The notes under the pieces: generated by a model
Databases searched by the model: none
Seen by the model: the letters and a program-made list of their open reading frames with translations, nothing else
Told to the model about the DNA's origin: nothing
Part shown: in pieces, positions 3,382 to 45,486 of the stretch
Numbering within the stretch: position 1 is the stretch's first letter
Layout of the letters: each line of letters begins with the position of its first letter
Program-made: the position numbers and the translations under genes
Virus record (IMG/VR): IMGVR_UViG_3300008516_000159
DNA from: a virus
Length of the DNA: 64,000 bases
Strand: one strand, 5' to 3'

Positions 3382-3456
3382 TGGGCGGGGAGGGATTCGA
3401 ACCCTCAACATCCAGATTTTAAATCTGGCGCCTCTACCAAGTTGCGCTACTCGCCC
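3382..3456 (-). tRNA. tRNA-Leu(UAA), short variable loop
   Basis: CCAGA-TTTAAAA-TCTGG anticodon arm; full cloverleaf. Confidence 0.9.
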
Positions 3457-3666
3457 CTGTTCTTGTCTATCATATGATTCTTAAGGCGGCCGCCACTATT
3501 GCCGCCACAATCCACACTGCGATTAGTATAAAAAACATGATCTTCGCATTTTTTGGCTGGTTATAGTTTTCCTCTCCTTTTTTGAATTTCTTCACTTTAA
3601 AATCCCACCAGCTTTCCCAAACGTGCCATTTTCTCACAATACCCCCTCCTCATTACATTATCTTTG

Positions 3667-3743
3667 TACCCCGGGGAGGACTCGAACCTCCAGACAACCC
3701 ACGTTCTGAACGTAGTGGCTATACCCGATTCGCCTACCGGGGC
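3667..3743 (-). tRNA. tRNA-Leu(CAG)
   Basis: CTACG-TTCAGAA-CGTGG anticodon arm. Confidence 0.88.
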
Positions 3744-3748
3744 TAGTG

Positions 3749-3823
3749 TGCCCGCGAGAGGATTCGAACCTCCAACATCACGGTCCTAAGCCGTGCGCCT
3801 CTGCCAGGTTGCGCTACGCGGGC
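3749..3823 (-). tRNA. tRNA-Leu(UAG)
   Basis: CACGG-CTTAGGA-CCGTG anticodon arm. Confidence 0.9.
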
Positions 3824-15449: not shown

Positions 15450-16469
15450 TTATCCTTCGTATTCCTCATGCTGCTGCGTCACTCTTATAAAAGTGGTACA
15501 CTTGCTGAGTTGTTTCAATGATGGCGCACCAACATAAGTACAGGTTGACCTAAGCCCGCCCAATATTTCTCTAATCGTGTCTATGACACGCCCTTTGTAC
15601 GCCACATCAATGGTCCTCCCTTCTGAGGCACGGTGAGCTTTAGGCCCACCATGGTACCGTTTTTGCGCCGTCTCTGAGGACATGCCATAGAACTTCATAT
15701 TTCCTTGTTCATCAACATTACCACATTCACTATGGCCAGCTAACATACCACCAAGCATAACGAAGTCAGCACCAGCTCCGAAAGCTTTCGCGACATCACC
15801 GGGACATCTGCAACCGCCATCAGATATAATATGTCCTTTCAGGCCGTGGGCCGCATCAGCACATTCAATAATAGCCGAAAGCTGTGGATAACCGACCCCA
15901 GTCTTCAATCTTGTAGTACAAACCGATCCCGAACCGATACCAACCTTGACTATATCAGCACCGGATAAAATCAATTGTTCAGTCATCTCCGCAGTTACAA
16001 CGTTACCGGCTATTATAGTAACTTCAGGAAATCTTTTGCGAGCTTTTTGAACAAAGTCCGCAAAATACTCTCCATAACCGTTAGCCACGTCGATGCATAT
16101 GAACTCCAGGAAATCAGTTGTCAGCTCGCCTATTGCTTCAAATTTATCTAACTCTTCCTCGCGAGCACCTATACTAATCGCTCCGTAATATGGAAAGAAC
16201 ATATGTATGTTTTTTTTCCAATCTTCCAAATTATAATACTTATGTATAGCTGTAAATATATATTGATCTCTGAGAGCAGAGTGCATCTCAAAGCTACCTA
16301 TCGTGTCCATGTTAGATGCCATTATTGGAATGCCTTTCCAATAAAGACCAGAATGTTTAAAATGGTAATCGCGTTCTAAATCTACATCTTTCCTGGATCG
16401 CAATGTACTTCTCTTTGGACGAATCAAAACGTCCTTGAAATCAAGTTTTACGTCATCATCTAATCTCAT
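15450..16469 (-). CDS. guaC: GMP reductase
   Basis: [43 protein letters not shown]. Confidence 0.95.
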
Positions 16470-18146: not shown

Positions 18147-18529
18147 TAGGGTAATGTTAAAGCGTATTTGGCCTGTGCGGCTTTATTTGCTAACCTAACA
18201 TGACCATTTTTGATCATATTTTCTATGATGGTGTATGACACGTGCATAACCTTGTTGATAGTACCATCCTTCATAACGGCCGCAAAAATAACCGCGTTAT
18301 CTCTTACGTAATATTCAGGTCCACTTATGTGTAGGACGCCATCAAATCTGACGTATTTGGTAAGTTTTTTAAGTTCTTCTTTTGTTATAACAGAATACGC
18401 TGGCAGCATAATCTGTTCTTTCTCGACTGGATATTTATTCCAGTCTATTTCGTAAACCTTGGCTAATTTAAAAAAATTATGTTCGGGTTTCATTGTTAGT
18501 GTGATTTCGGTAACTTCGTCCGTGTCCAT
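18146..18529 (-). CDS. Hypothetical protein with C-terminal AKxLL-like motif
   Basis: Ends KAAQAKYALTLP. Confidence 0.6.
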   Translation of the reverse strand: MDTDEVTEITLTMKPEHNFFKLAKVYEIDWNKYPVEKEQIMLPAYSVITKEELKKLTKYVRFDGVLHISGPEYYVRDNAVIFAAVMKDGTINKVMHVSYTIIENMIKNGHVRLANKAAQAKYALTLP

Positions 18530-18556
18530 GTAACGATCCTTAAAAAAAAAATATAA

Positions 18557-19410
18557 AGCCTGAGACTAGAGCTCTATATGTTAACCCTTTCATTCCCTTA
18601 CGGTTTGGGTGCTATCCAAACCTTAGGAACTTATCCACCGATCCAGGACCGGTAGGTTAACACAGCTGCTTTTTTATACTGGTAGCGGTTCCAGTGTCGC
18701 ACTGAATCACTCGGCTATCTGGGTACCGTCAGCCTTGCGAGCTGTAAAGAGGCGCTAACCTCACCGTGCTCCTTTCAACCAACCTTCCGCCGCCTTGCGA
18801 GCCTTGGAAAGTCCATATTCCCCGAAGGGTACGGAGTTGAGCTGCTTTCATCCAGCACCGGGTCAGTCTTTGCAGATATTCCAACGTATCGGAATCGAAC
18901 CGATCACATTATGCTCCTCAAGGCATACGCTCTACCAAACTGAGCTAACATTGATAAAACGGGTCACCCCGCGGCAACACCGTGCTAACCCACCAGTTTC
19001 ATAGGCTTTTGGCCTACGGAATGCCGGACGGTGCTTGTCTTTCCCTTGCCAGGTACTGAACGGTTTTTCAAGATCGATGTGCTCCCAACGCATACCGTTG
19101 GGCGGATATGCCCACCAACCTATCAAACTGCTATGAGGCGCTCACTTGCGAGGCTCGCACAACATAACTACTGTTCACTCTCCTGTTTGACCGATTTTGG
19201 TTGCAAGTAATCGATTTCCAGTCGAAAGAAATAATGCCAGTGTTACCCACATCATTTCCTGTCCTTGCTCGGCGTCCACACAAGCTCCGCGAGGACCGCG
19301 AAGCCATTGGAGTGTCAGCTTGCTTGAATTGACCATCCGAAGATGGCGACGGTCGCCAACCCGCCTTTACAGTCCTTGCGAACTGCTGTCAATGTCAAGC
19401 CACTATATAC
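18557..19410 (-). ncRNA. Giant ornate ncRNA, GOLLD-like, with embedded tRNA
   Basis: ~850 nt with no credible ORF; many GCAA/UUCG-capped hairpins; boxA-like GTTCTTTGAAA upstream; ends AGTCTCAGGC then a T run. Confidence 0.7.
18880..18954 (-). tRNA. Atypical tRNA (Leu GAG-like) with 8-nt anticodon loop
   Basis: TATGC-CTTGAGGA-GCATA; canonical D and T arms. Confidence 0.75.
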
Positions 19411-19723
19411 TTTTTTCAAAGAACAATCTTTTCTTGGAATGCAGAGTTATATATGCTTCCAGAAATAGCTTTTTTTTATCTTTTTTAATAACCGCTTATC
19501 TCAATACTTCTGGATGTTCCACAGCCAGGGCACTTAACATCAACAGAAAGTTCTCCGTGAGATCCACAAAGCTCACAAGGACTACTCCAGTGATTAAACG
19601 CAAACTCGTCAACTTTCACTCTGTGTGATTTATCACACTTGCTGCAGTGAAACTTCACAGTAATACTTTCTAAAGTGAATTCGATCTTCTTGCCTCTGGC
19701 CATGTTATCCTCCTAAGATCTAT

Positions 19724-19752
19724 ATTCTAAAGCTTTTTAGTCTTTTTGTAAA
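19724..19752 (-). promoter_or_regulatory. Sigma70-type promoter
   Basis: TTTACA-N17-TAGAAT. Confidence 0.6.
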
Positions 19753-19791
19753 GTTTTTTCTATGTCAAAGAGCTAAGACTTTTTTGTTACT

Positions 19792-19866
19792 TCGGCCATC
19801 TCAGATTCGAACTGAGGATCTCATGCTCCCAGGGCATGCGGAGTGACCAAACTCTCCTAATGGCCG
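19792..19866 (-). tRNA. tRNA-Pro(UGG), C33
   Basis: CATGC-CCTGGGA-GCATG. Confidence 0.85.
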
Positions 19867-20052: not shown

Positions 20053-20136
20053 TTATTTGTTGGCGCTACAAGCAGATCTTACACTACACCATGGTAGTTA
20101 GTTTGGGATCTTGGCAGGGAAGCGCCAACTTCAGTG

Positions 20137-20211
20137 TGCCCGAGAGAGGAGTTGAACCTCCAAATTACACTGGTTCTAAGCCAGCAGCCTTTGCCATTTA
20201 GCCACTCGGGC
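20137..20211 (-). tRNA. tRNA-Leu(UAG), second copy
   Basis: GCTGG-CTTAGAA-CCAGT; short variable region. Confidence 0.88.
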
Positions 20212-22210: not shown

Positions 22211-22228
22211 TTTAAAAGAACTAATTAC

Positions 22229-22257
22229 ATTATATCAGCACATATGCGTTTTGTAAA
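22229..22257 (-). promoter_or_regulatory. Sigma70-type promoter
   Basis: TTTACA-N17-TATAAT directly upstream of the candidate ncRNA. Confidence 0.72.
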
Positions 22258-24407: not shown

Positions 24408-26219
24408 CTATCTTTTTTTAAGAACATTTGAGGCTTTCGCTTCATCATACCACCATGTATCTATGAAACCCAGAGCATATTTGGGTTGTACTTTAGGCCG
24501 ACCAAACATATCCCAATATGACACTCTATAAACAGTAATGTGCCAGTGAGGTATCACATAATGTCCCCACAAAAGCACCCTGTCTAGCGCGCGGCAAGCC
24601 GTGATAAGCTCTTCTCTTGTCTTAGCGTGGATAACCTTTTCGATCAAACCATCTACCACGGGATCCTCGATACCAATGTAGTTCCCGGAACCGGACAAAT
24701 TTGCTGTATATGAACCCCACATGTTTCTCTGTTCGTTACCTGGAGAATTGCTTTGACCCCAACTACCAACTATCATGTCGAAATCGAAAGCATTTAGCCT
24801 ATTTATATATTGAGAACTATCTACCAATCTAATCTCCATCTCGATACCAACTTTTTCCAGGTTTTGTCTGAACGGCATGCTGATTCTTTCGAAACCAGGA
24901 CTAACCAGGAGGATCTCGAACTTGAACTGTTTTCCATCTTTCATAAGACGGTTTTTATCGTCCAGCACCCAACCGGCCTCTTGTAGTAAAGTCATGGCAT
25001 TTTCGAAATTGTTTCTCATATTTTTTGCGCCGCCAGTAGGAGAACTATATTCTGTTGTGAACACCTCATCTGGTAACTGATCCCTATAAGGCTCTAATAA
25101 CTTTAATTCAGACCTGCTTGGTAAATTGTAACTGGCCAATTCTGAATTAGAGAAATAGCTATGAGTTCTTTCATAGGCACCGTAGAACAACGCCTCGTTT
25201 GTCCACTCGAAGTCAAACAGATATGTCAAAGCCAATCTTACCCGCTTGTCCTTGAACAGGTCGCGACGAATATTGAAAGCGAACGATTGCATGCCTGTTG
25301 GATTTCCATTGGGTAGCTCTTCTTTTATTATGTAGCCTTTCTTGAACATCTTTCCTTCATAGGCTGTTGCCCACACTTTCGAAGTGTTCTCCATTCTGAA
25401 ATCGTATTCGCCAGATTTAAAGGCTTCGACAACCACGGTCTCATCACGGTAATATTCGTATGTTATTGTATCAAAATTGAATGTCCCTTTTCTAACAGGA
25501 ATATTCTCGCCCCAGTAATCTGTCACCCTCTCATATGTAATAGAGCGGCCGGCATTTAACATCAACACCCTGTAAGGGCCGCTTCCAACAGGAAAATCAA
25601 GACTAGTCTTGTCAAACTCGTGCTCGGTGAAATACTTTTTCTGGATAATAGATATCTGACCCATTATCAAGGGAAGCTCTCTGTTTACTTCTCCCTTTTT
25701 GAAGATGAATTTAACCTTGCGATCATTTATTTTAACAGCCTCATTTACGCTAGCGTAGTACATACGGTAAAACGGAGATGCCTTTTTTGACATAAGCATC
25801 TCAAAAGAGAATATAACATCATCAGCAGTGACCGACGTACCGTCGTGCCAACGGGCTTCCTCTCTTAGAGTAAACGCAACCCAGGAGCCGTCCTTGGGGA
25901 CCTCGATGCTTTCGGCCAATAATCCATATACTGAAAATGGCTCGTCATCGGCATTTACAGTCAATGTTTCATATATCAGACCAATACCGGCGGCGGAGTT
26001 GCCCCTTAGGATGAATGGATTGAGGCTGTCAAAAGTGCCGACCGCGGCTAAAGTAATGTCGCCTCCCTTGGGTGCATCTGGATTTACATATTCGAAATGT
26101 TTAAAATCTGCAGGATACTTAAGATCGCCATGCATGGCAAGACCGTGACTTTCGCCGGCGAATATAGGCATGGCGCTCAATAAAAACGCCAAAAAACCAA
26201 CGATACATAATGTTTTCAT
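24408..26219 (-). CDS. ABC transporter family 5 extracellular solute-binding protein (YejA-like)
   Basis: Signal peptide, then HGLAMHGDLKYPADFKHFEYVNPDAPKGG, FDSLNPF, WGQSNSPGNEQ. Confidence 0.92.
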   Translation of the reverse strand: MKTLCIVGFLAFLLSAMPIFAGESHGLAMHGDLKYPADFKHFEYVNPDAPKGGDITLAAVGTFDSLNPFILRGNSAAGIGLIYETLTVNADDEPFSVYGLLAESIEVPKDGSWVAFTLREEARWHDGTSVTADDVIFSFEMLMSKKASPFYRMYYASVNEAVKINDRKVKFIFKKGEVNRELPLIMGQISIIQKKYFTEHEFDKTSLDFPVGSGPYRVLMLNAGRSITYERVTDYWGENIPVRKGTFNFDTITYEYYRDETVVVEAFKSGEYDFRMENTSKVWATAYEGKMFKKGYIIKEELPNGNPTGMQSFAFNIRRDLFKDKRVRLALTYLFDFEWTNEALFYGAYERTHSYFSNSELASYNLPSRSELKLLEPYRDQLPDEVFTTEYSSPTGGAKNMRNNFENAMTLLQEAGWVLDDKNRLMKDGKQFKFEILLVSPGFERISMPFRQNLEKVGIEMEIRLVDSSQYINRLNAFDFDMIVGSWGQSNSPGNEQRNMWGSYTANLSGSGNYIGIEDPVVDGLIEKVIHAKTREELITACRALDRVLLWGHYVIPHWHITVYRVSYWDMFGRPKVQPKYALGFIDTWWYDEAKASNVLKKR

Positions 26220-26748
26220 ATTTTCCCTCATCTTTTCTTGCTCCAATGGTTAACTCGTGAAACACTAAACACAATGGAGCCAAGACATAATATTAACACC
26301 ACAAAACAACAAAAAGGATCTACGCTGTTGAACCTTGCTTCAATATTTAATATGACGAACACGATCAACCATGGGAAAAACAAAAGGAGTGTGTTACAAA
26401 ATTTTCTGTAGCTGCTCAGACCATCGTACCATATGTTATATTTCTGAAAGAATTTTTTAATTGTCAACGGTAACTACCTTCATTTGCCGACCAATACAAT
26501 TCTATACCAAGAATTCGAGCTCTTGTGTCCGCACATTCAGGGCAGAGCAGGCCAGCTTCACCTTCTTTGGGTGTTATTATTTTCCATACTTCATCAGGTA
26601 CAAGGTAGACTGTTTCATATGCTTTGCCACAAACCTGACAATGTTCCATAGTACCTAAAGAGTCCTCATCCAAAGTTGTTCCATCCCATTGATCCATCAG
26701 CCTAACAAGTTTTTCCTTCTTGACATTTAGCTAGTTTCATCTAACTAG

Positions 26749-28292: not shown

Positions 28293-28324
28293 CCAATTTC
28301 AAAGAACAAATTTGTGCTATTCTT

Positions 28325-33335: not shown

Positions 33336-33562
33336 TAACAATCTTCTGCGCCTTGATTTTCCAGAAGAGCCTCTTTAGCGCGAAATCTCCTGTCTACCCG
33401 CCACTCTTCTTTGAGCCTGGAAAAAAGGTCCTTGGTGTCATTGCCATATATACCAGCACAATAGTAAACACCGCTGTCAACGTATCTGGCGTTTTCTTCA
33501 AAGAACTCGAACAGTGCTTTTTCGTCTGGAATGTTCCAGAGACTATTGCGAAAACCTCTCAT
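33335..33562 (-). CDS. Small protein with C-terminal AKxLL-like motif
   Basis: RRFRAKEALLENQ; internal ATG with SD downstream of a promoter. Confidence 0.62.
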   Translation of the reverse strand: MRGFRNSLWNIPDEKALFEFFEENARYVDSGVYYCAGIYGNDTKDLFSRLKEEWRVDRRFRAKEALLENQGAEDC

Positions 33563-44169: not shown

Positions 44170-45486
44170 TTAATCCACTCTTTTAAGCCGCGCTAAAAAA
44201 TGTCTTAATGTTGGAGGACTCGATACAATCTTGAGACCTTTTATTTCGTGCCGCCTCTTGAAAACTTTTTGAACCGCATCAGCAACATAATCCATATGGC
44301 GGTCCGTATAAACTCTCCTTGGAATGGCCAACCTAAGCAGTTCTGTGTTTGTGTTTTCAAAAGCAAGATTCCCCAACCCAACACCTCTTACTCCTGATTC
44401 TATATACAACTCTACAGCCAGAGCTTCAGCAGGAAACTGCTCTCGGGGAATGTGGGTAAAAAACGAAACGGCATCTATGAAAACAGCATGACCTCCAACT
44501 ATAGTTTTAATGCCCACGCTATCTAATCGGTCTCCTAAATATTCGACTTGTCTTACTCGGTCTGCTATATAATCATCGCCCGTCATCTCTTTTAATCCAA
44601 CTGATATTGCCTCAATATCGCGACCAGACATGCCACCATAACTAACGAAGCCTTCGTATAATATCAAGTTAGGCAAGATTTTTTCATAGAGATTTTTATC
44701 TCTCAAAGCGATGAGTCCGCCCATGGATACAATAGCGTCTTTCTTTAAACTAAAGGTACATCCATCTGCGTAAGAGAATTGCTCTTTTATAATTTGCGCT
44801 ATCGTTTTGTCGTTATATTCTCTTTGTTGAACAAAGTAAGCGTTTTCTGCGCATCGAGCAGCATCAAAGAAAACAGGTAGGTTATATTTATCGGCAATAT
44901 TTCTTACTGCGCGCATATTTTGTATTGAAACTGGCCGCCCGCCTCCACTATTATTGGTAATCGTAAGCATAATGAATGGAATTCTGATCGTCTCATAAAA
45001 ATTTATCGTTTGTTCTAACTTGTTTATATCGACATTGCCCCTGAAGGGGTGATTGTCTTCACAATCAATCAAGCAGCTTTTAAAGCTAGCACCAGCGTTC
45101 GCTATGTGTGCAGCTGTTGTATCGAAAGGCTGGTTAAAAAGTATTACATCTCCTTTGTTTACTAAAGCTTTAAAAAGCAGGTGCTCTGCCGCTCGACCTT
45201 GATGACATGGAATTGTGTATTCAAAACCGAGCGTTTCCATAACTACTTTTTTGAGTTTTTCAAAGCTTCGAGATCCTGCATATGATTCGTCTCCGAGCAT
45301 CATTGCGCTCCACTGTCGATCTGACATGGCATTTGTTCCGCTGTCGGTTAAAAGATCGATATAGACATCATCAGATTTCAAGTTAAAGACATTATAATGG
45401 GCTTTTACGATTGCTGCTATTCTTTCGCTTTTGCTCACTAATTTGATGGGCTCTATTACTTTAATCTTCCAGGGTTCTGGTAACAT
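44170..45486 (-). CDS. tnaA: Tryptophanase-like PLP beta-eliminating lyase
   Basis: IDLLTDSGT, GDESYAGS, SLKKD PLP lysine; FDTT and LRHF match tryptophanase rather than tyrosine phenol-lyase (FTTT, LRFF). Confidence 0.85.
   Translation of the reverse strand: MLPEPWKIKVIEPIKLVSKSERIAAIVKAHYNVFNLKSDDVYIDLLTDSGTNAMSDRQWSAMMLGDESYAGSRSFEKLKKVVMETLGFEYTIPCHQGRAAEHLLFKALVNKGDVILFNQPFDTTAAHIANAGASFKSCLIDCEDNHPFRGNVDINKLEQTINFYETIRIPFIMLTITNNSGGGRPVSIQNMRAVRNIADKYNLPVFFDAARCAENAYFVQQREYNDKTIAQIIKEQFSYADGCTFSLKKDAIVSMGGLIALRDKNLYEKILPNLILYEGFVSYGGMSGRDIEAISVGLKEMTGDDYIADRVRQVEYLGDRLDSVGIKTIVGGHAVFIDAVSFFTHIPREQFPAEALAVELYIESGVRGVGLGNLAFENTNTELLRLAIPRRVYTDRHMDYVADAVQKVFKRRHEIKGLKIVSSPPTLRHFLARLKRVD

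Follow-up and report, generated by a model that had tools for sequence, protein, structure and literature searches.

A GOLLD RNA with a tRNA-shaped linker module and a candidate boxA leader in a large uncultured phage

We analyzed a stretch of 64,000 nucleotides (nt) of the IMG/VR virus record IMGVR_UViG_3300008516_000159, called the window in the following, in which an earlier note had singled out a structured RNA of about 850 nt with a transfer RNA (tRNA) inside it and had likened it to the GOLLD RNAs. We conclude, with a probability of roughly 85%, that the minus strand of the window from about 19403 to about 18545 is a GOLLD RNA gene of about 860 nt which lies inside a 37-tRNA island of a large uncultured phage. 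The GOLLD identity of this minus-strand block is held with high confidence; it belongs to a known family and represents no new RNA class. The GOLLD covariance model is matched over its full length by the 3′ half, and the 5′ half is a separate, covarying multi-helix domain. The linker of the 3′ domain carries a tRNA-shaped module, and in the viral GOLLDs sampled by us a tRNA at this site is the rule and not the exception.

The GOLLD RNA and its two domains

The covariance model RF02032 of Rfam 15 matches positions 18557–19036 on the minus strand with 155.7 bits (gathering threshold 150) and an E-value of 1.1e-41 for the 64-kb window, and the alignment spans model positions 1–416 of 416 and is not truncated. 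A permissive Rfam search of the region 18300–19800 yielded, beyond GOLLD, the tRNA model alone, at 18880–18954; ROOL (RF03087), OLE (RF01071) and the other Rfam families had no match at E <= 1 on either strand of this region. The G+C content of the block amounts to 0.50–0.53 compared to 0.36–0.40 in its flanks, and the 868-nt RNA is more stably folded than 20 out of 20 shuffled sequences (z = −2.7). Since the E-value for GOLLD reaches 1e-41 for the whole 64-kb window and the folding is better than in all 20 shuffles, the features of the minus-strand block far exceed chance.

The landmarks by which the earlier note had recognized the block are all present and have to be read on the minus strand. 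This applies to the GC-rich block itself as well as to its hairpins capped by GNRA or UUCG loops, e.g. CAGUUCGCAAGGACUG, GAGCCUCGCAAG, GGCUCGCAAGGC, CAGCUCGCAAGGCUG, CCAUCUUCGGAUGG, ACCCUUCGGGG and GGUUUGG...CCAAACC. The proposed 3′ boundary at 18557 is the exact end of the Rfam match, and the T run noticed there was found again: the end of AGUCUCAGGCU lies at 18557, and behind it come UUAUA and a run of ten U. The 5′ boundary, placed at 19410, was right to within about 10 nt, the conservation among homologues starting at 19403. The model search suggested as a check returned the full-length GOLLD match above the gathering threshold and nothing for ROOL and OLE, and covariation in homologues supports both halves of the RNA. 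The fallback offered by the note, a new giant RNA class, gained no support because the full GOLLD model is matched. The principal parts of the RNA are listed here.

18557–19036, minus strand: GOLLD 3′ domain including the linker (Rfam RF02032, 155.7 bits, E 1.1e-41)
19037–19403, minus strand: GOLLD 5′ domain of about 370 nt with 16 predicted helices (outside the Rfam model; covariation of three sequences)
18975–19036, minus strand: first hairpin of the 3′ domain (model positions 1–62), located 5′ of the linker (cmscan alignment; nearly invariant in the homologues L010 and L003)
18850–18859, minus strand: strand GGUGCUGGAU of the long-range pairing, J13/15 side (square-bracket columns of the Rfam consensus)
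18698–18707, minus strand: partner strand AUUCAGUGCG, L20 side (Rfam consensus and three-sequence alignment)
18542–18579, minus strand: 3′-terminal hairpin AUAUAGAGCU / GGCUUUAUAU with loop CUAGUCUCA, followed by a U-run (three-sequence consensus fold)

A scan of viral contigs with a 3′-end pattern, combined with Rfam, led to five further GOLLDs scoring 158–209 bits. Two homologues are full-length, and both lie in the same tRNA-array context as the GOLLD of the window. One of them, L003, is among these five, sits on a 189-kb viral contig, has the same tRNA order as the window and is 83% identical along the whole RNA; the other, L010, stems from a metagenome scan, is about 93% identical and has an upstream open reading frame (ORF) of 72 codons for a Zn-ribbon protein and a tRNA-Pro in common with the window. 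No relatives were found among the viral contigs via the downstream 127-residue protein, and the genomes of isolated phages (50,697 records) contained only tRNA-level similarity to the window.

The 5′ domain lies outside the Rfam model. RNAalifold applied to the window, L010 and L003 gave 112 pairs in 16 helices for this domain, with 97.6% of the cells paired. Double-sided changes occur at 27 pairs compared to 10.5 ± 2.6 in shuffled alignments (0 out of 500 reach the observed number) and to 4 or fewer if the pairing partners are slid. The hairpin at about 19079–19097 is cleanly missing from L003. For the last 90 nt or so of the domain we found weak matches directly upstream of the 3′ domain in three further loci, L005, L006 and L004 (E 0.0011, 0.0017 and 0.16, respectively), and the end of the domain is also recognizable in L078 by the motif AGUUUGAUAG...CUUGAAAAACCGUU. 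Detectable similarity to other GOLLDs is limited to these last 90 nt or so, and this pattern is in agreement with the published divergent 5′ region joined to a conserved 3′ region (PMC12286853). An 18-mer shared by the 5′ domain with L008 and L009 was rejected as a chance match; neither of them gives a GOLLD signal.

In the 3′ domain, the conserved long-range pairing of the GOLLD family (18850–18859 with 18698–18707) is kept at 9 out of 10 positions. L003 preserves it by double changes from C-G to U-A and from A-U to G-C (columns 181–189 with 332–340). In the cryo-electron microscopy (cryo-EM) structure of the env-38 GOLLD this J13/15-L20 pairing forms an intermolecular kissing bridge (PMC12286853). 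The last helix is lengthened to 10 pairs (columns 461–489), and a U-run follows in the window, L010 and L003. The 3′-terminal hairpin with its U-run could plausibly serve as an intrinsic terminator and thus mark the 3′ end of the RNA.

An additional small hairpin lies in the GOLLD linker, directly 5′ of the nested tRNA.

18956–18978, minus strand: small hairpin rich in G+C, CGGGG-UGA-CCCG, then UUUUAU (terminator scan)

Its stem is kept in L003 by a double change from CG to UA (columns 66/77), and it was not seen in L078, a more distant GOLLD. The hairpin has the look of a weak terminator or of a tRNA leader, and an attenuation of transcription between the 5′ and 3′ halves is conceivable.

As far as sequence analysis allows, the idea that the block is a new giant RNA class unrelated to GOLLD, or that it codes for protein (18932–19126 on the minus strand; 19197–19628 on the plus strand), is already refuted and retains next to no probability: the Rfam score is near the threshold and ORFs of 53–143 codons do overlap the block, but the full model is matched at E 1e-41 with the consensus pairs kept, the same 3′ motif led to five other viral contigs with scores of 158–209 bits, the neighboring real ORFs belong to no Pfam family, and the two ORFs named by the earlier note as possible counter-evidence are not conserved, all 6 out of 6 overlapping ORFs being broken in L003 by stops and frame-breaking indels (of 1, 2 and 22 nt) and one of them by a stop in L010 too.

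The leader and its boxA-type element

Upstream of the RNA, the window and its two full-length homologues have the following elements in common.

19447–19462, minus strand: upstream box CTGGAAGCATATATAA with a −10-like TATATA/TATAAC (identical in the window, L010 and L003, while the neighboring bases diverge)
19413–19426, minus strand: boxA-type leader element TTGTTCTTTGAAAA with the core GTTCTTTGAAA at 19424–19414 (conserved in L010 and L003)
19424–19416, minus strand: conserved leader block GTTCTTTGA (window, L010 and L003)
19403–19393, minus strand: conserved block GTGGCTTGACA, where the conservation of the RNA starts (window, L010 and L003)

The upstream motif CATATATAA lies where the earlier note had placed it and is conserved in the homologues; the longer GGAAGCATATATAA occupies 19447–19460. 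The upstream box precedes the boxA-like box by 21–28 nt, which is the spacing that follows TATAAT-like −10 elements in other GOLLD leaders. We therefore regard CTGGAAGCATATATAA as a putative GOLLD promoter. A further motif, CTTTGACATAGAAA, upstream of a neighboring ORF, is enriched only at 3 mismatches, and its position is not clear.

The boxA-like element which the note had seen at 19414–19424 proved to be present as GTTCTTTGAAA, conserved in the homologues and statistically upheld across the sampled GOLLDs. L010 and L003 have it at the same place, at the RNA's 5′ edge. To quantify its occurrence we used the loci with enough upstream sequence, 30 in number for the exact core. In 14 out of these 30 loci an exact G[TC]TCTTT[AGT]A lies 348–574 nt upstream of the 3′ domain, i.e. 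at the 5′ edge of the RNA, compared to an expected 0.024 per locus. If one mismatch at most is allowed to GYTCTTTRAAA, 16 out of 32 GOLLD leaders contain the box, compared to 1 out of 32 on the opposite strand and 1 out of 32 inside the 5′ domain, which corresponds to a 16-fold enrichment over both controls. The usual GOLLD leader consists of a TATAAT-like −10 element (sometimes with a TTGACA −35), a short hairpin, the box, 10–20 nt and the first helix of the RNA. This layout of hairpin and box follows the boxB-boxA order of ribosomal RNA (rRNA) leaders.

The published boxA consensus is GYTCTTTAANA (PMC5725501). Several sampled GOLLD leaders match this 11-mer exactly, and GTTCTTTGAAA of the window matches it at 10 out of 11 positions. 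We further searched species-representative genomes for the 14-mer TTGTTCTTTGAAAA of the window, and 22 out of 122 sampled matches lie 73–117 nt before the start of the 16S gene or in the 16S-23S spacer. The genomes with such an rRNA box, many of them Bacillota, include Paenibacillus, Neobacillus, Bacillus, Clostridium, Mycoplasmopsis, Veillonella and Nitrospira, and the 14-mer is the site of spacer primers and probes for Mollicutes. The variant with G at position 8 is a real rRNA box. In the searchable literature we found no paper that brings GOLLD together with boxA, NusB or antitermination.

Might the GTTCTTTGAAA box still have a promoter-proximal or structural role, or resemble boxA by chance, without being a Nus-factor site, so that no rRNA-type antitermination takes place? 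Half of the sampled GOLLD leaders do without the box, and 2 out of 4 minus-strand copies in the window are doubtful, one at 33497–33506 inside an ORF and one at 28298–28307 behind a tRNA and without a preceding promoter; neither copy was counted as support. On the other hand, the box holds a fixed place at the RNA's 5′ edge, where −10 elements and frequently a short hairpin lie upstream of it, the enrichment over two controls is 16-fold, several leaders agree exactly with the 11-mer consensus, and the 14-mer of the window is identical to rRNA leader or spacer boxes of many bacteria. We consider a box without a Nus function rather unlikely. The loading of NusB/NusE on this boxA, with protection against Rho, is a reasonable expectation from the leader sequence.

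Two observations made in passing concern similar elements. At 22212–22257 on the minus strand a second boxA-like leader, GTTCTTTTAA, lies few bases behind a TTTACA-N17-TATAAT promoter. The stretch that it heads has neither a tRNA nor an Rfam match and may represent a further structured RNA. Upstream of the 72-codon Zn-ribbon ORF, GCTCTTTGACATAGAAA is kept in three relatives (19757–19779 on the minus strand of the window; about 38–60 in L010; about 11130–11150 in L003), and it reads as a boxA-like core (GCTCTTTGA) and as a TTGACA −35 alike.

The tRNA-shaped module of the linker

The earlier note had described a full tRNA within the RNA, and both ARAGORN and the Rfam tRNA model call it on the minus strand.

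18880–18954, minus strand: nested tRNA-shaped module (ARAGORN; Rfam tRNA model, 49.6 bits at a gathering threshold of 29)

It represents an unaligned insert of the GOLLD model (at about model position 104/105) in an A-rich variable stretch behind the first hairpin and before the long-range pairing. All 7 out of 7 acceptor pairs are formed (5 Watson-Crick and 2 G-U), and the D and T arms are canonical, with A73 and a 5-nt variable loop; CCA is not encoded. The anticodon loop has 8 nt, CU-UGAG-GA (CUUGAGGA), and is closed by UAUGC/GCAUA. It thereby departs from the usual 7-nt loop with a 3-nt anticodon, and ARAGORN reports "tRNA-??? (tgag)", the sole four-letter anticodon among the 37 tRNAs of the window. 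The loop is identical in L010 and is therefore no sequencing or assembly error. The nested tRNA of L003 has a different abnormal loop, CUUAGAAAC, whose 9 nt sit on a stem of 4 pairs. In its body the module of the window comes closest to tRNA-Pro(UGG) of N4-like and T4-like phages: the D arm is identical, the anticodon stem and the variable loop are nearly so, and one A is inserted relative to UGG. A local duplication was rejected as its origin, the best identity to the 36 other tRNAs of the window being 0.62. Apart from its loop, the copy of the window is the most tRNA-like of its class.

In order to view this element in a broader context we collected 94 viral loci with a looser 3′-end pattern and surveyed them with an nhmmer profile built from seven Rfam-verified 3′ domains. 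This gave 50 full-length 3′ domains, 43 of them distinct, in a sample that is selected by the pattern and is no census. According to ARAGORN, 31 out of the 43 distinct viral 3′ domains have a tRNA on the same strand at this linker site, the other 12 being without one, and the nested tRNAs of the sampled GOLLDs align to one another. Five loci, L013 and L063 together with the copies L093, L094 and L097, have the nested anticodon UCA (ARAGORN "SeC", of the opal-suppressor type) in class I bodies of 72–74 nt.

The nested tRNAs differ from free tRNAs in several respects. Bodies with the anticodon stem AATTCC/GGAAT show a loop that reads GCU, UCU, UGA or UUU, or that is expanded to UUCA or UGAU. Anticodon loops of odd length occur in 6 out of 30 nested tRNAs compared to 3 out of 387 free tRNAs from the same loci (Fisher p = 6e-6), where about four of the nested cases are independent events. 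The long variable arm is missing in all 10 out of 10 nested tRNAs with Ser, Leu, Tyr or SeC anticodons and in 14 out of 77 free ones. The acceptor stem has 5.5 out of 7 pairs on average in nested and 6.9 out of 7 in free tRNAs (p = 2e-26); only 5 out of 7 pairs are left in 17 out of 28 nested tRNAs, while 333 out of 379 free tRNAs form all 7. The T-loop is retained in 27 out of 28 nested tRNAs. Since the sampled modules differ widely in their anticodons, frequently have 8-nt loops and in most cases show a defective acceptor end, we infer that the insert, as a class, is kept for its tRNA shape (cloverleaf and T-loop) and not for decoding.

In L018, L058 and L048 the 3′ domain is essentially identical outside the tRNA, and all three tRNA stems differ by compensatory pairs. 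Between close pairs of GOLLDs the nested tRNA differs by 29% and the core by 2.9%, and the flanking DNA of the same pairs is 6–30% diverged. A "hyper-fast" evolution of the whole tRNA cassette was considered and rejected, as the tenfold excess mostly reflects an extremely constrained core next to flanks of 6–30% divergence. The sounder statement is that the GOLLD core is extremely constrained and that the nested tRNA keeps only its fold.

The sole pair with a real acceleration, confined to the anticodon loop, is L078 (60–1100, minus strand) and L098 (850–1890, minus strand). The two viral contigs agree to about 99–100% over the GOLLD, its leader and approximately 2 kb of flank, with flanks 97.5–100% identical, and about six substituted sites separate them over approximately 1,000 nt of leader, RNA and immediate flank (one of them just past the 3′ end), in addition to a 6-nt indel past the 3′ end. 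Three of the differences lie in the anticodon loop (the 8-nt AUUGAUAA compared to the 7-nt AUUUUGA), and a single one affects the D loop; the anticodon loop accounts for about half of the few changes within approximately 1 kb. They could stem from a burst of change at this spot or from the conversion of a short patch. We also asked if the anticodon loop pairs with a site in its own GOLLD and rejected the idea, as the longest complementarity is 6.58 nt in the own RNA and 6.59 nt in others.

A rival reading takes the nested element for a real tRNA that is released. It would then be cut from the GOLLD precursor by RNase P and RNase Z, and the cage described below for other GOLLDs would act as a store that delays maturation; the 8-nt loop would make it a +1 frameshift or quadruplet decoder (UGAG reading CUCA), or it would be an ordinary Pro or Leu tRNA. 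Variants of tRNA-Pro with 8-nt loops are the classical sufA/sufB frameshift suppressors. The lineage of the window fits such a tRNA with its 7 acceptor pairs, A73 and canonical D arm, T arm and variable loop, and U33 and the purine behind the four anticodon bases are kept, as they are in three other independent 8-nt loops (UUCA, UGAU and UUUG). The tRNA is moreover 97% identical between the window and L010 despite flanks at 85%, and the idea of an "inhibited storage" has been published (PMC12990946). Against this stand the defective acceptor stems across GOLLDs, anticodons at odds with the body class, the lack of a conserved anticodon, the loop of L003, which is abnormal in a different way, and the missing CCA. 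Two normal tRNA-Pro(UGG) genes and two Leu(UAG) genes exist elsewhere in the window, and in Mycobacterium a released pseudo-tRNA was not detected (PMC6582537). On balance we judge a releasable tRNA to be unlikely.

The tRNA shape might instead work as a processing punctuation. RNase P and RNase Z would recognize the acceptor/T-arm shape, the anticodon would be irrelevant, and cleavage would separate a 5′ piece (the 5′ domain and the first hairpin) from a 3′ piece (the conserved core), and these two pieces would either remain assembled or act on their own. Such a signal would account for a cloverleaf and T-loop that are conserved next to an anticodon loop that varies, the insert site is fixed exactly between two structural domains, and these two domains fold separately in the published structure (PMC12286853). 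However, RNase P and RNase Z depend mainly on the acceptor stem, and it is here that most nested elements are least intact, with only 5 out of 7 pairs in 17 out of 28 cases; GOLLDs free of a tRNA exist (12 out of 43 sampled, and env-38, whose linker has 42 nt), and transcripts left uncut assemble in vitro. We regard it as quite improbable. For the window itself a releasable tRNA, possibly a quadruplet decoder, and a processing signal are both possible, because the acceptor stem of this copy is intact and well conserved. A real tRNA function is likewise possible for this copy.

Proposed role, carrier phage and known systems

Two GOLLDs have been solved as RNA-only assemblies, the env-38 GOLLD as a 14-mer cage (PDB 9MEE) and the Streptococcus agalactiae GOLLD as a 12-mer (PDB 9L0R) (PMC12286853, PMC12990946). 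By analogy with these cryo-EM structures, the GOLLD of the window would self-assemble into an RNA-only cage of 12 to 14 subunits. Embedded tRNAs, which the linker of GOLLD holds in some cases, would lie inside the cage (Kretsch et al., PMC12286853), and by the same analogy the linker of the window, hence 12–14 copies of the tRNA-shaped module, would be found there. A 2026 review (PMC12990946) mentions a tRNA-Phe in J13/15 of a Mycolicibacterium GOLLD, citing Morgado 2020, and a pseudo-tRNA gene is described inside the GOLLD of M. aubagnense, for which separate expression was not detected (PMC6582537).

The leader suggests how such an RNA may be made. Host NusB/NusE (S10) would bind the leader boxA and render the RNA polymerase Rho-resistant on the long untranslated transcript, and their loading could perhaps also assist co-transcriptional folding, as in rRNA operons. 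Among the functional options for the insert we propose, tentatively and with low confidence, a tethered mimic of tRNA, which would engage a tRNA-binding factor within the cage while the phage grows lytically. Candidate partners would be a tRNA-targeting defense nuclease of the host, a processing or modification enzyme, or the ribosome.

An even bolder version, which we think unlikely, would combine these aspects: GOLLD as a Nus-dependent, rRNA-style transcript that forms a cage with a dozen tethered mimics inside, the insert being a near-universal, fast-changing bait cassette of phage GOLLDs for a tRNA-binding host factor. The target could be, e.g., an anticodon nuclease or another tRNA-directed defense, and the variable loops, including the recurrent 8-nt ones, would record an arms race and not decay.

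While we favor a caged GOLLD with a Nus-type leader and a tethered module, one must keep in mind several points that weigh against it. That the RNA oligomerizes is a conclusion drawn from two other GOLLDs. Transcript, ends and possible processing are all deduced, the transcription start of the window only from the −10-like box, and this upstream box has no recognizable −35. GGAAGCATATATAA was rejected as a recurring phage promoter, as it has 3 matches in the window at 2 or fewer mismatches, a number that 6 out of 100 shuffles reach. The RF02032 score exceeds the gathering threshold by just 5.7 bits (the 75-nt insert lowers the score, and the E-value is not in doubt). The covariation of the 5′ domain is that of three sequences, and the structure tested was derived from the same alignment. 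About half of the sampled leaders lack boxA, and the sample was picked by a 3′-end pattern and is biased. Finally, the nested tRNA of the window is atypical of its class in its complete acceptor stem, and its identity to that of L010 (97%) is above that of the GOLLD core (93%) and of the flanks (85%).

The carrier of this RNA is a divergent large phage. ARAGORN reports 37 tRNAs in the window, all on the minus strand, and tRNA genes flank the GOLLD on both sides; nearly all ORFs are on the minus strand as well. They include proteins similar to Rad50/SbcC and Mre11/SbcD, a UvsX/RecA-like recombinase and a thymidylate synthase. The UvsX-like protein shares about 30% identity with its counterparts in T4-like cyanophages and in a 735-kb uncultured phage. 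Auxiliary genes of four unusual types were noticed on the minus strand (24408–26246, 681–1670, 15450–16469 and 44170–45486): a full-length family-5 (YejA-like) solute-binding protein without a transporter, a response-regulator/HD-GYP protein, an enzyme of the GMP reductase/IMPDH family and a beta-eliminating lyase.

Another peculiarity concerns all five tRNAs of the window with Leu anticodons (2531–2604, 3382–3456, 3666–3743, 3748–3823 and 20136–20211, all on the minus strand). They have 74–78 nt and no long variable arm, their anticodons being CAA, UAA, CAG and, twice, UAG. Bacterial tRNA-Leu normally belongs to class II with a long variable arm. The Ser and Tyr tRNAs of the window measure 83–90 nt.

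To our knowledge GOLLD is among the largest bacterial and phage non-coding RNAs of unknown function, even though the cage structure has been solved. The window adds a clean full-length GOLLD from a large uncultured phage, and two homologues define its 5′ domain. The hypothesis that many GOLLDs carry an rRNA-type boxA leader predicts a dependence on host NusB/NusE and Rho, and a linker module that is conserved in shape, free in sequence and defective at its acceptor end, as we also hypothesize, argues for a tethered mimic and against a tRNA gene. The added value lies in quantified evidence for both the boxA leader and the shape-only conservation of the linker tRNA. If confirmed, the boxA, the prevalence of linker tRNAs and the hypotheses of a tethered module would narrow the search for the binding partner of the cage.

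Compared to the reference GOLLDs of RF02032 (env-38 and S. agalactiae), the RNA of the window shares the conserved 3′ domain and the long-range pairing in it, a separate 5′ domain that is more variable and has about 400 nt, a length above 800 nt, a phage origin, a tRNA island and a variable J13/15 linker able to hold a tRNA. Unlike the disordered 42-nt linker of env-38, the linker is here a Pro-type cloverleaf with an 8-nt loop. The RNA is also a distant member in its sequence and ends in a helix of 10 pairs with a U-run. The GOLLD of a Mycobacterium tRNA array (PMC6582537) resembles it in the array of at least 30 tRNA genes, the odd tRNA-like gene inside and the phage-derived cluster. That GOLLD lies in a bacterial chromosome, whereas ours is part of a large phage contig and has a Pro-like body with an expanded loop and an intact acceptor stem.

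ROOL (RF03087) is unrelated in sequence and fold, with no match at E <= 1, but shares with our RNA the type of a large ornate phage or prophage RNA near tRNA islands, which forms an RNA-only cage with an interior linker. The tRNA-Pro of the sufA/sufB type has a Pro-type body with one extra base in the anticodon loop as well; in the window it is an A that is added within UGG, and the element forms part of a giant RNA. Compared to the boxA leader of rRNA operons, the box of the window precedes a phage non-coding RNA, has G at position 8 in place of the A of the gammaproteobacterial consensus and comes without a clear boxB hairpin in the lineage of the window, and Nus binding is predicted here. 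It has the same core, lies just downstream of a promoter-like element and upstream of a long structured untranslated RNA, and in many GOLLD leaders a short hairpin precedes the box in the manner of boxB.

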